Part shown: in pieces, positions 44,817 through 46,978 of the stretch
How positions within the stretch are numbered: position 1 is the first letter of the stretch
Layout of the letters: every line of letters starts with the position of its first letter
DNA from: a virus
DNA: 64,000 nt
Strand: one strand, 5' to 3'
Virus record (IMG/VR): IMGVR_UViG_3300045988_152007
Span: 124,475 to 188,474 of that record
Position numbers and translations under genes: made by a program
Notes under the pieces: generated by a model
What the model was told of the DNA's origin: nothing
Seen by the model: the letters and a program-made list of their open reading frames with translations, nothing else
Database searches by the model: none

Positions 44817-45677
44817 TTATTTCACAGGAGCTGTTAAGGTAAATATTTTTTTTACGCATTCAATCCAATATAAAGCTGCTTCTCTATCTACGGTGTTTAA
44901 ATGCACTATTGTTGTTTTAGTAAAATCATCTGGGTCTGGGATTTCCAAATCCCAAATCTTAATAGGATTCATTTTATCTTGGTCTAATACAATACGTCCT
45001 TGATTTAAATTATTTAAATTAGTAATAATAGTTTCAAAGGTTTTATTTAATAACATAGTATATGTCATTTTTCCATTTTCATCTTCATTCCAATTGCTTA
45101 CAAGACCAGCAACACTATTATCACCAAATTCATTTATATAATTTTTATCATTATAAATTTTACTGACTTTTAAATTTTCAAATAATCTATAAATAACCTT
45201 TTTAAGATTATTTATGTCATCACTTTCTGCAATACGAGAAATATGTAAATTCTTTTCTAACTCATTTACTTCTTCACTTGTGCAACCATTATTACAGTGT
45301 CCAAGGCATCCTCCAGAGCAAGTTCCTGAACATTGTTCGGCACAGGCTGTTGTGCAAGTACCAGAGCATCCTCCGCTACAGGAGCCTTCACAGCTAGAGC
45401 AAGATTCGTCACAACCACCGCAATGTCCAGTACAATTATCACAATTTCCAGTACAGTCTGTATCACATGTTCGTTTTGGGCCACAATCTACACTGCATTC
45501 TCCACAACCTGCTACACAATCATCGCCAGAACAGCTAGAACAAGTATTCCCGCTATTCATACTATCACCATTAAAACATCCTGTTTCACAAGCCCCACCT
45601 GATAGCCCTGGTTGATAATTATCTGAGCCTTCATATCGACCCATTGTTCTACTATCTCGTCCTGAGTTACAAGCCAT
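44817..45677 (-). CDS. Cysteine-rich repeat protein with an N-terminal region of about 130 aa of CxxC/CxxxC repeats rich in Gly, Ser, Thr, Asp and Glu. A candidate radical-SAM substrate or metal-binding protein.
   Basis: 286 aa. About 40 Cys in the first 130 residues (CETGCFNGD...CSGGCLGHCNNGC). Locally GC-rich. Stop is 3 nt from the radical-SAM gene stop-start junction. Confidence 0.6.
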   Translation of the reverse strand: MACNSGRDSRTMGRYEGSDNYQPGLSGGACETGCFNGDSMNSGNTCSSCSGDDCVAGCGECSVDCGPKRTCDTDCTGNCDNCTGHCGGCDESCSSCEGSCSGGCSGTCTTACAEQCSGTCSGGCLGHCNNGCTSEEVNELEKNLHISRIAESDDINNLKKVIYRLFENLKVSKIYNDKNYINEFGDNSVAGLVSNWNEDENGKMTYTMLLNKTFETIITNLNNLNQGRIVLDQDKMNPIKIWDLEIPDPDDFTKTTIVHLNTVDREAALYWIECVKKIFTLTAPVK

Positions 45678-45679
45678 AA

Positions 45680-46978
45680 TTACTCCTCCTTTATTAAATA
45701 ATTATATTCTTCTTGAGTAATAATTTTATCTACAAAATTATAATCGAATTTACCAATTTTATTTAGAGCCTTTTTGTCATTTATTTTTTTATAAAAATAT
45801 ATAGTAGATAAACATTCAGCTTTATGACATTCACATATTGTTGTAGTTCTATGACATAAATCTCCTGTCATCTAATAACTGCATCCAGCGCACCAAGCAC
45901 ATCCTCTTTCTATTGGACATTCTAGGCATTCTTTAGTAGATATATTCTTTTTTGTATAGTTTTTAAAAGATTCTAATATCTATTTTTCAGAATTAGTATA
46001 ACCGATACCATGTTCTACATTACCAATTATTAAAGGAGGTACATCATTTCCTAAAGAACTTTCCATAAAACGAATACAAGTATAAATGTCTCCTTTCCAA
46101 TCTAAAGAAAACATATTAGAAGTGGTTCCACACCATCTTTCTTCCAATCTTTCTATTTCTAATGGAGCATAATTATTAGGTTCAAAAGGTCTAAAATAAA
46201 TATCATCTTGTAAATTATTTTCAATGATATAATCAGCAATTTTTTTTAATTCATTATAATAAGTTTTAATATAATCTTCCTTAGTCCATACATCTTCAAA
46301 AACACAATTAGCATAGATATTATTAAATCCTAATTCAATCATATTTTTTATTCCTTTAAATACATAAGGTAGATTGTCTGGACTAAAAGTTATTTTAGTT
46401 CCTTCATTGCCCTTTTTAAGTAAATCTAATCCAGCTTTAACTGCTAAATCATAACTTCCTTGACCATTAGGGAATAAACGGCATTTATCATGTAATTCTT
46501 TACAACCGTCAATAGTTATATTTATTGACGCAAATGTTCCATATTTTTTTAAAAACTTCTATACTTTTGGAGTAAAATATAAAACTCCATTAGAGCATAA
46601 ACTAAAAACATGGAACATTTGCCATGGAGAATCTTTTGGTATTTCATTTAATTTATTTTCAAAGTATTCACAGATCTAATCAATTAAATCAATTTCTAAT
46701 AAAGGTTCTCCTCCAATAAAATCTAAAATGAATCCAAATATTTTTCCTTCATAAAAATATGATTCAGGATTAGTTCGTCCTTCAAATATATAATCAATAA
46801 ATTTTTTAGCGATTTCAAAGGACATTTTATGATGTCCTTTATTTATTTGATAACAATAAGAGCAACATAAATTACAATCATCAGTCACTTGAAAAGTTAA
46901 ACTTTTCATCATTTTTCCATTCCATGATGGAAATAAAGTATAAACGTAATCAGCATACTAGTAATTAGGTTCTAACAT
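45680..46978 (-). CDS. Radical SAM enzyme with a C-terminal SPASM/twitch domain (anSME, peptide-maturase type). Contains 4 TAGs.
   Basis: CNLCCSYC motif (CxxxCxxC) in fragment 46676-46912. C-terminal CLECP...GCAWCAGCSY...CECHKAEC auxiliary-cluster cysteines. Fragments 45680-45871 and 45980-46342 join across TAGs. Confidence 0.7.

Follow-up and report, generated by a model that had tools for sequence, protein, structure and literature searches.

Radical-SAM/SPASM enzymes encoded beside cysteine-repeat targets are catalogued as the CXXX-repeat system, reportedly defined by computation by Haft and Basu (J Bacteriol, 2011); the system comprises the maturase family TIGR04115 and the target families TIGR04114, TIGR04117 and TIGR04118. 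CteB is a ranthipeptide maturase of the SCIFF (six-Cys-in-forty-five) type, and QhpD puts three Cys-Asp/Glu thioethers into QhpC, a protein subunit that stays in a larger assembly. PapB, the partner of PapA in the freyrasin ranthipeptide system of Paenibacillus polymyxa, also makes Cys-Asp/Glu thioethers, forming serial small rings along a repeat substrate (PMC9413430). Here we analyse a cassette of this general kind in a stretch of gut-phage DNA 64,000 nt long (positions 124,475 to 188,474 of IMG/VR record IMGVR_UViG_3300045988_152007), which we refer to as the window. The cassette consists of a gene for a 432-aa radical-SAM/SPASM enzyme, readable only with TAG as a sense codon, followed directly by the gene for a 286-aa Cys-rich protein, the target. 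A preliminary description, made from the sequence alone, had proposed that the two form a maturase-target pair that modifies Cys.

Like the catalogued system, the window has an enzyme that passes the family cutoff beside a same-strand target with a Cys at every third or fourth residue. Against NCBIfam TIGR04115 (radical SAM peptide maturase, CXXX-repeat target family), the enzyme reaches 386.9 bits, above the curated cutoff of 350, with an E-value of 1.2e-115 and an alignment spanning profile positions 2-359 of 359. Members of TIGR04115 are encoded next to a CXXX-repeat protein; here, the target gene begins 2 nt past the enzyme stop codon, a TAA, and the modal Cys spacing is 4. Scores at other phage and bacterial loci are 409-634 bits, and the window enzyme is a comparatively divergent member. 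The radical-SAM motif CX3CX2C is present as CNLCCSYC (C35-x3-C39-x2-C42), and the SPASM region has the full set of seven Cys for two auxiliary [4Fe-4S] clusters (C283-x12-G-x4-C301; C351-x2-C354-x5-C360-x2-C363; C382). Both the radical-SAM Cys and all seven SPASM Cys are invariant in an alignment of 15 sequences, which bears out the two Cys motifs named in the preliminary description. The enzyme also exceeds the cutoff of the SPASM model TIGR04085 (30.7 bits, cutoff 27) and matches phrog_1802 (1e-53), and its family is very large: at E<=1e-20, the clusters number more than 5,500. The start codon at 46978 is backed by an N-terminal 'Y.D....LFP' motif common to homologues.

After TIGR04115, the best-scoring families are all thioether-forming: PapB (NF047865; 182.3 bits, cutoff 340), SCIFF maturase (TIGR03974; 114.9 bits, cutoff 425, aligned from profile position 90) and QhpD (TIGR03906; 103.7 bits, cutoff 453). 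The PapB model, like the window enzyme, lacks a long N-terminal extension. PapB differs in that its model scores the window enzyme below its cutoff, in that its substrate has a CX3D/E pattern whereas Asp and Glu are rare and at no fixed place in the window target, and in having a short peptide as its substrate where the window has a protein. The nearest solved structure is that of CteB (5WGG/5WHY; E 7e-21), which has in common with the window enzyme a radical-SAM core and a two-cluster SPASM domain. Unlike CteB, the window enzyme has no counterpart of the N-terminal RiPP (ribosomally synthesised and post-translationally modified peptide) recognition element (RRE), since the alignment begins only at CteB residue 93 and just 24 residues precede the radical-SAM core; the SCIFF cutoff is likewise missed. 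The match to QhpD is significant, and QhpD/QhpC offers a precedent for Cys thioethers in a protein subunit that remains in an assembly; nonetheless, the window target carries a long periodic ladder rather than three links, and the window has no dehydrogenase genes. An anSME assignment, which the preliminary description had entertained beside thioether formation, is rejected (TIGR03942; 44.8 bits, cutoff 349): anSME has the same radical-SAM/SPASM architecture and acts on a Cys in a protein, but the window has no sulfatase gene and its target no C/S-x-P-x-R motif. The broader proposal of a Cys-modifying maturase with its target was thus of the right kind, and the HMM (hidden Markov model) searches that the preliminary description had called for did not lead to a housekeeping family. 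Judged by its sequence, the enzyme is a peptide- or protein-modifying maturase, with its family membership established.

The target protein has 26 Cys within residues 1-132 and a single Cys in the remainder. From residue 46 onwards, successive Cys are spaced by 4 (14 times), 3 (five times), 5 (once) and 6 (once) residues. The near-continuous array reported previously is therefore real, with CxxxC/CxxC as its unit in place of CxxC/CxxxxC; similarly, the two genes are immediately adjacent as had been stated, at a spacing of 2 nt and not 3 nt. A six-frame scan of the window found no other such array. Across relatives of the target, about 24 Cys columns are invariant and the residues between them drift, and the array is the predicted site of modification. 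The C-terminal domain, which opens with a conserved 'TSEEVN..L...L..SRIAESDDIN.LKK.I', is conserved to a degree comparable to the array. Relatives of the target form 45 clusters among 5.8 billion proteins, all of them on metagenomic contigs that can be as long as 186-214 kb, and a profile of the C-terminal domain has only 13 matches among 1.84 billion representative proteins. The domain has no match in Pfam, NCBIfam or PHROG, and the target has no tblastn match among GenBank phages. An AlphaFold2 model built on a 33-sequence alignment has a mean predicted local distance difference test score (pLDDT) of 43; no fold is predicted for the array (pLDDT about 25-35), the C-terminal domain reaches 55-68, and a Foldseek search of the model against the PDB returned nothing below E=1.

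Linkage between this enzyme family and Cys-array open reading frames (ORFs) is near-universal. We fetched related loci encoding relatives of the enzyme (numbered L001 onwards), taking the best 80 viral loci and 80 bacterial-genome loci among the matches listed, and scored as an array any ORF with at least eight Cys spaced 2-7 residues apart. Such an ORF lies on the enzyme's strand within 6 kb at 78 of the 80 viral and 74 of the 80 genome loci, or 152/160 together. In the 1.86 Mb covered, 208 arrays are on the same strand as the enzyme gene versus 12 on the opposite strand, and the Cys-Cys spacing is most often 4 (4,919 cases) or 3 (1,553 cases), with others rare. Around a target relative of 39% identity, the whole neighbourhood is kept (metallophosphatase, AAA_33 kinases, Band_7/flotillin, 432-aa enzyme, target, 184-aa ORF, PhoH, amidase). 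The two most distant target relatives lie in other contexts, yet each has a TIGR04115 enzyme directly upstream (411 and 408 bits). All of ten representative enzymes pass TIGR04115, except the enterobacterial jumbo-phage versions and one from a gut contig (300 bits). Adjacency of the pair, which the preliminary description had asked to be checked in homologous phages, is hence retained far beyond close relatives, and the target did not turn out to be a zinc-ribbon or metallothionein-type domain.

Table 1. Features of the cassette region in the window, with the Cys-array ORFs of two GenBank jumbo-phage records. Coordinates count from the first nucleotide of the window or, for the phage rows, of the fetched locus.
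Feature	Position	Strand	Basis or remark
Predicted radical-SAM/SPASM maturase, 432 aa	45680..46978	-	TIGR04115 score, phrog_1802, CteB match, invariant Cys
In-frame TAG codons of the enzyme gene	first bases 46960, 46678, 46561, 45982, 45874	-	
Target protein gene, 286 aa, without TAG	44817..45677	-	Starts 2 nt past the enzyme TAA
Cys-ladder segment, target residues 30-132, 25 Cys	45282..45590	-	CxxxC/CxxC, Gly/Ser/Thr/Asp-rich spacers
Target C-terminal domain, about 154 aa, with stop codon	44817..45281	-	Orphan conserved alpha/beta domain
Displaced third component, 95 aa	40509..40796	-	Profile of the ~100-115-aa ORFs, E 2e-13, full length
77-aa ORF	46983..47216	-	Directly upstream of the enzyme gene; near-identical ORF in close relative L008
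184-aa ORF	44204-44758		Next gene after the target
Band_7/flotillin-like (SPFH) protein, 459 aa	47385-48764	-	Directly upstream of the cassette; position kept in L001-L003
Terminator-like hairpin, 14-bp stem and T-run	47355..47386	-	Terminator scan
Terminator-like hairpin with U-rich tail, directly past the target gene	44757..44820	-	-23.5 kcal/mol, z-score -7.86
Promoter-like TTGACA-17-TATACT, near-consensus sigma-70-like	44786-44814	-	11/12 matches; overlaps the second hairpin
CxxxC-array ORFs, Salmonella phage SEGD1 (L168, KU726251)	2190-2486; 2497-2901		
CxxxC-array ORFs, Erwinia phage ChrisDB (L006, KX397366)	1124-1516; 1517-1921		

The targets encoded at the related loci fall into three types. 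Type (a), the commonest in phages and prophages, has a domain of about 120 aa containing 'LTA.E...LK..VK.EM.RR...YDF', followed by 17-144 Cys; its gene precedes that of the enzyme, and cassettes of this type come after baseplate-wedge, tail or minor-tail genes (L026, L046, L007). Type (b), to which the window target belongs, has the array first and the domain last and is encoded downstream of the enzyme (L008-L014, L088, L102, L114 and others). Type (c) consists of short bacterial peptides of 57-185 aa, and it is these that the curated target models recognise: a peptide at L124 scores 55.3 bits against TIGR04117 (cutoff 50) and 20.0 against TIGR04114 (cutoff 20), and one at L106 scores 39.7 against TIGR04118 (cutoff 35). 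Types (a) and (b) share a '[DE][DE][IF]..LK..[IV]' motif beside the array, and an hhalign comparison of the type (a) N-terminal domain with the window C-terminal domain (probability 24%, E 8e-4) aligned the two around this motif only. The window target thus differs from catalogued CXXX-repeat targets in its length of 286 aa, in its N-terminal array joined to an orphan domain, and in the position of its gene downstream of the enzyme; the window system differs further in belonging to a TAG-recoded phage, with five TAG codons in the enzyme gene, in having its accessory gene about 4 kb away, and in a target on which the curated target models are silent. It is a new member of a catalogued family, and one that is typical for phages. 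Across the 160 related loci, the system's predominant carriers are gut Bacillota and Bacteroidota phages and prophages, and many of its targets are proteins, not short peptides.

Among phage targets, the number of Cys rises to 144 and the protein length to about 670 aa. The extreme cases are single ORFs in which an uninterrupted CxxxC/CxxC array stands behind an N-terminal domain of about 120 aa: L105 3276-5285, from a metagenome-assembled genome labelled Tenericutes, has 144 Cys, and L097 3846-5279 has 95. At another locus (L005 4179-11602, a JGI 3300039191 contig), Cys-array ORFs occupy 5601-5969 and 6001-6594, and the TIGR04115 enzyme is accompanied by three further radical-SAM/SPASM genes within 6 kb, beside an F5/8 type C (discoidin) protein. 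Bacteroidales CXXX-repeat peptides encoded just upstream of the radical-SAM gene (L124, L133, L159) carry a twin-arginine-like 'SRR.FFK' followed by a hydrophobic stretch, which suggests twin-arginine translocation (Tat) export of a product that has already been modified or loaded with a cofactor. L026 belongs to the viral locus type met most often; at 10787-12013, some 3.5 kb beyond its cassette on the downstream side and within a tail/baseplate block, lies a reverse-transcriptase gene (phrog_1423), which may be part of a diversity-generating retroelement.

We propose, by analogy and with a probability of roughly 0.6, that the window carries a phage copy of the CXXX-repeat maturation system, made up of enzyme, target and accessory protein, in which the Cys ladder would be serially cross-linked by thioethers. 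Thioether formation is the most likely chemistry given the nearest characterised relatives, PapB, CteB and QhpD. The radical-SAM cluster would cleave S-adenosylmethionine to give a 5'-deoxyadenosyl radical, which would take a hydrogen off a carbon of a spacer residue, and the adjacent Cys thiolate, held at a SPASM auxiliary cluster, would trap the carbon radical to form the thioether. Repeated along the array, this would form small rings one after another through a Gly/Ser/Thr/Cys segment that is about 100 residues long and otherwise unstructured, and the product would be a stiff, protease- and redox-resistant 'ladder' joined to a folded C-terminal domain. Because the enzyme has no RRE domain, the substrate would probably be recognised through the conserved stretch flanking the array, through the accessory protein, or through both. 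The weakest step of the proposal is that the modified target may belong to the phage particle or the infected-cell envelope and not be a diffusible peptide; we favour a structural or surface role because the targets are protein-sized (here 286 aa with a conserved domain) and because the cassettes of most other phages lie in tail/baseplate blocks. No support was found for the toxin or defence effector suggested in the preliminary description. If serial thioether cross-linking is correct, the product would represent a novel, covalently reinforced type of phage protein and an attractive scaffold for the enzymatic making of hyper-stable peptides. A broader and more doubtful idea is that radical-SAM-matured 'cysteine ladders' could be a widespread, undescribed modification of phage proteins, whose cross-links would yield rigid rods or fibres from the protein-sized targets with 17-144 Cys that many gut phages encode in baseplate/tail-fibre blocks; the window target would then be a ladder fused to a lineage-specific domain.

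Several observations weigh against thioether cross-linking of a structural protein. The chemistry is extrapolated from relatives whose family cutoffs the enzyme falls well below, and the spacers offer no fixed acceptor residue, such that the CX3[D/E] rule of PapB is inapplicable: Asp or Glu stands right before the next Cys in only 4/22 units of the window target, and spacers family-wide are mostly Ser, Gly and Thr, with Asp and Glu together at about 7-8% of each spacer position. Although curated HMM libraries have for years included both the maturases and their Cys-repeat targets, no paper on the chemistry of the TIGR04115 family or on its link to phages turned up in full-text searches. In the window, the cassette sits amid replication and auxiliary genes, not structural genes. 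The accessory protein is predicted to fold as a beta-alpha-alpha-beta-beta helical hairpin, which is not an RRE/PqqD fold. On sequence, a metal-binding role for the Cys array is conceivable, if unlikely. Lastly, neither the full target nor its array alone matches TIGR04114, TIGR04117 or TIGR04118 (cutoffs 20, 50 and 35 bits) even at E<=10, although the composition filter of HMMER may suppress such matches, and the missed match may for that reason be no argument against a Cys-repeat target.

The absence of a conserved Asp/Glu acceptor leaves room for the same enzyme and target to be joined by a different chemistry, such as formylglycine or dehydroalanine formation, epimerisation, C-C or S-S(n) bonds or an unprecedented link, with no S-C thioethers being made. 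The family has no characterised member in the literature searched, and SPASM enzymes that do not form thioethers exist (anSME, PqqE, MftC and SuiB serve as outgroups in PMC10288494). Nonetheless, the four top-scoring characterised families are all Cys-thioether formers, with anSME at just 44.8 bits, and Cys at fixed spacing is the invariant feature of the targets. We therefore consider a different chemistry unlikely.

An alternative possibility, which we regard as distinctly unlikely, is that the target is a RiPP precursor of reversed order (core at the N-terminus, 'follower' domain at the C-terminus), from which, once modified, a Cys-rich diffusible peptide (a toxin, bacteriocin or signal) would be cleaved. 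The bacterial members, at 57-185 aa, with twin-arginine-like signals in some and matches to the RiPP models TIGR04117/TIGR04118, are in keeping with such a precursor, and the conserved stretch beside the array could be a recognition sequence. However, Pfam listings for the syntenic loci L001-L003 contain no protease or transporter gene beside the cassette, the C-terminal domain is conserved as much as the array, and the phage versions, with up to 144 Cys in about 670 aa, occur in tail modules.

It is also conceivable that the array is a metallothionein-like module for metal or Fe-S, and that the radical-SAM gene is a mere neighbour or handles the clusters. At 20% Cys with small spacers and no predicted array fold, the array is indeed metallothionein-like in composition, and the Tat-type signals of the Bacteroidales peptides would fit the export of a cofactor-loaded protein. 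Linkage to a single maturase family in 152/160 loci of very different genomes argues against this, as do the kinship of TIGR04115 to substrate-modifying maturases and the failure of the target to match any metallothionein, zinc-ribbon or other Pfam/NCBIfam model; we judge a metal-binding module very improbable.

The proposal that the enzyme matures the target presupposes an intact enzyme gene, and the gene is intact only if TAG is read as sense. Indeed, the preliminary description was right that the radical-SAM ORF is real, but made no mention of the recoding on which the ORF depends. Its frame contains five TAG codons, at residues 7, 101, 140, 333 and 369; a single-frame translation of 46912-45678 has four internal stops, all TAG, and the start at 46978 adds the fifth. 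Translation by table 11 leaves only pieces of 78, 120 and 63 aa. TAG is read through window-wide, with ORFs ending at TAA or TGA: when only these two are treated as stops, ORFs of 965, 918 and 590 codons emerge with 21, 13 and 14 in-frame TAG (2826-5723 on the plus strand, 61243-63999 and 22402-24144 on the minus strand are examples of read-through ORFs). The homologues have Gln at the aligned sites far more often than the 3% Gln background, and TAG is thus read as Gln: of 14 homologues, 4, 7, 13, 1 and 10 have Gln at residues 7, 101, 140, 333 and 369, respectively, making Gln conserved at three of the five sites (140, 369 and 101). In-frame TAG in conserved genes opposite Gln of homologues is the mark of genetic code 15, which has been documented in gut phages (PMC9523058; bioRxiv 10.1101/2021.08.26.457843). 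That the radical-SAM gene is instead a decayed pseudogene with five stops and the pairing a relic, as its table 11 fragments might suggest, is effectively refuted and ruled out by the conserved Gln, by window-wide read-through, by TAG at the same 'KVqK' site in relatives, by the retention of every catalytic Cys, and by interruptions that are exclusively TAG, with no TAA, TGA or frameshift.

No tRNA gene, and hence no suppressor tRNA, was found within the window. The target gene, unlike the enzyme gene with its five, is free of TAG codons, and one relative's target gene has one. TAG-free genes of the window (DNA polymerase, topoisomerase, ligase, flotillin-like) are interspersed with TAG-rich ones, and TAG-rich genes elsewhere in the window are presumably late genes; if the published model in which recoding delays translation applies, the enzyme would be translated only after suppression is active. 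Recoding and low-complexity repeats together hide genes of this sort, with standard-code annotation fragmenting the enzyme gene. Two genes beyond the cassette are similarly affected: the PhoH-like gene (42676-43932, minus strand) has five TAG codons and is fragmented under table 11, and the amidase gene (41333-42625, minus strand) has two, with a table 11 call of 319 aa that read-through from the same ATG extends to 430 codons.

A third small protein belongs to the CXXX-repeat system. Of 126 loci, 92 have a short ORF (about 100-115 aa) immediately ahead of the enzyme gene. In the window, a profile of these ORFs finds their homologue in a displaced 95-aa ORF, about 4 kb beyond the target gene and past the 184-aa ORF, PhoH, amidase and a 152-aa ORF. 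The same displaced position is seen in the close relatives L001 and L008-L010, and the 95-aa ORF has no NCBIfam match. The preliminary description had instead pointed to the two small genes that flank the pair. Both exist, but they are not recognisable components of the system: the 77-aa and 184-aa ORFs have no NCBIfam or PHROG match, and their scores of 6.6 and 11.8 bits against the accessory profile are not significant. The 77-aa ORF is probably co-transcribed with the enzyme gene.

The pairing had been called unusual on a phage, which it is not. In IMG/VR, relatives of the enzyme occur in at least 500 stretches, with an array in 78 of the best 80, and tblastn finds an enzyme homologue in 90 GenBank phage records, including 34 from Erwinia, 22 from Salmonella, 6 from Campylobacter and 20 gut 'Bacteriophage sp.' Two cultured phages, ChrisDB of Erwinia and the SPN3US-like SEGD1 of Salmonella, each have a pair of radical-SAM genes with two CxxxC-array ORFs lying some 2 kb upstream (Table 1). 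In these jumbo phages, the arrays are either unannotated or overlapped by coding sequences of the wrong frame or strand (SEGD1 gp170 and gp169, ChrisDB gp188), which read as Val/Ala-rich 'hypothetical proteins'; ChrisDB gp187 (1526-1921) is the only array coding sequence annotated in its proper frame. Virion proteomics searched against those GenBank records would miss most of the real array products.

The placement of the pair between two terminators, as had been described, is borne out by terminator-like hairpins. The genes of this region are on the minus strand, and the stretch between the two hairpins contains the 77-aa ORF, the enzyme gene and the target gene. The first hairpin stands at the end of the flotillin-like gene upstream and sets the 5' limit of the cassette's transcription unit. 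For the second, none of 200 shuffled sequences was equally stable, and the terminator scan as a whole gave four sites, compared to 0.8 expected from shuffles. The promoter-like site that overlaps the second hairpin would serve the 184-aa gene. Further afield, the window encodes a 1333-aa DNA polymerase, a ligase, topoisomerase II subunits, PhoH, the flotillin-like protein and an amidase. The DNA polymerase is 38% identical to polymerases of Enterococcus and SPbeta-like phages, and the sequence suggests as the source a large phage of Bacillota without a cultured close relative. The flotillin-like gene is an unusual one for a phage.

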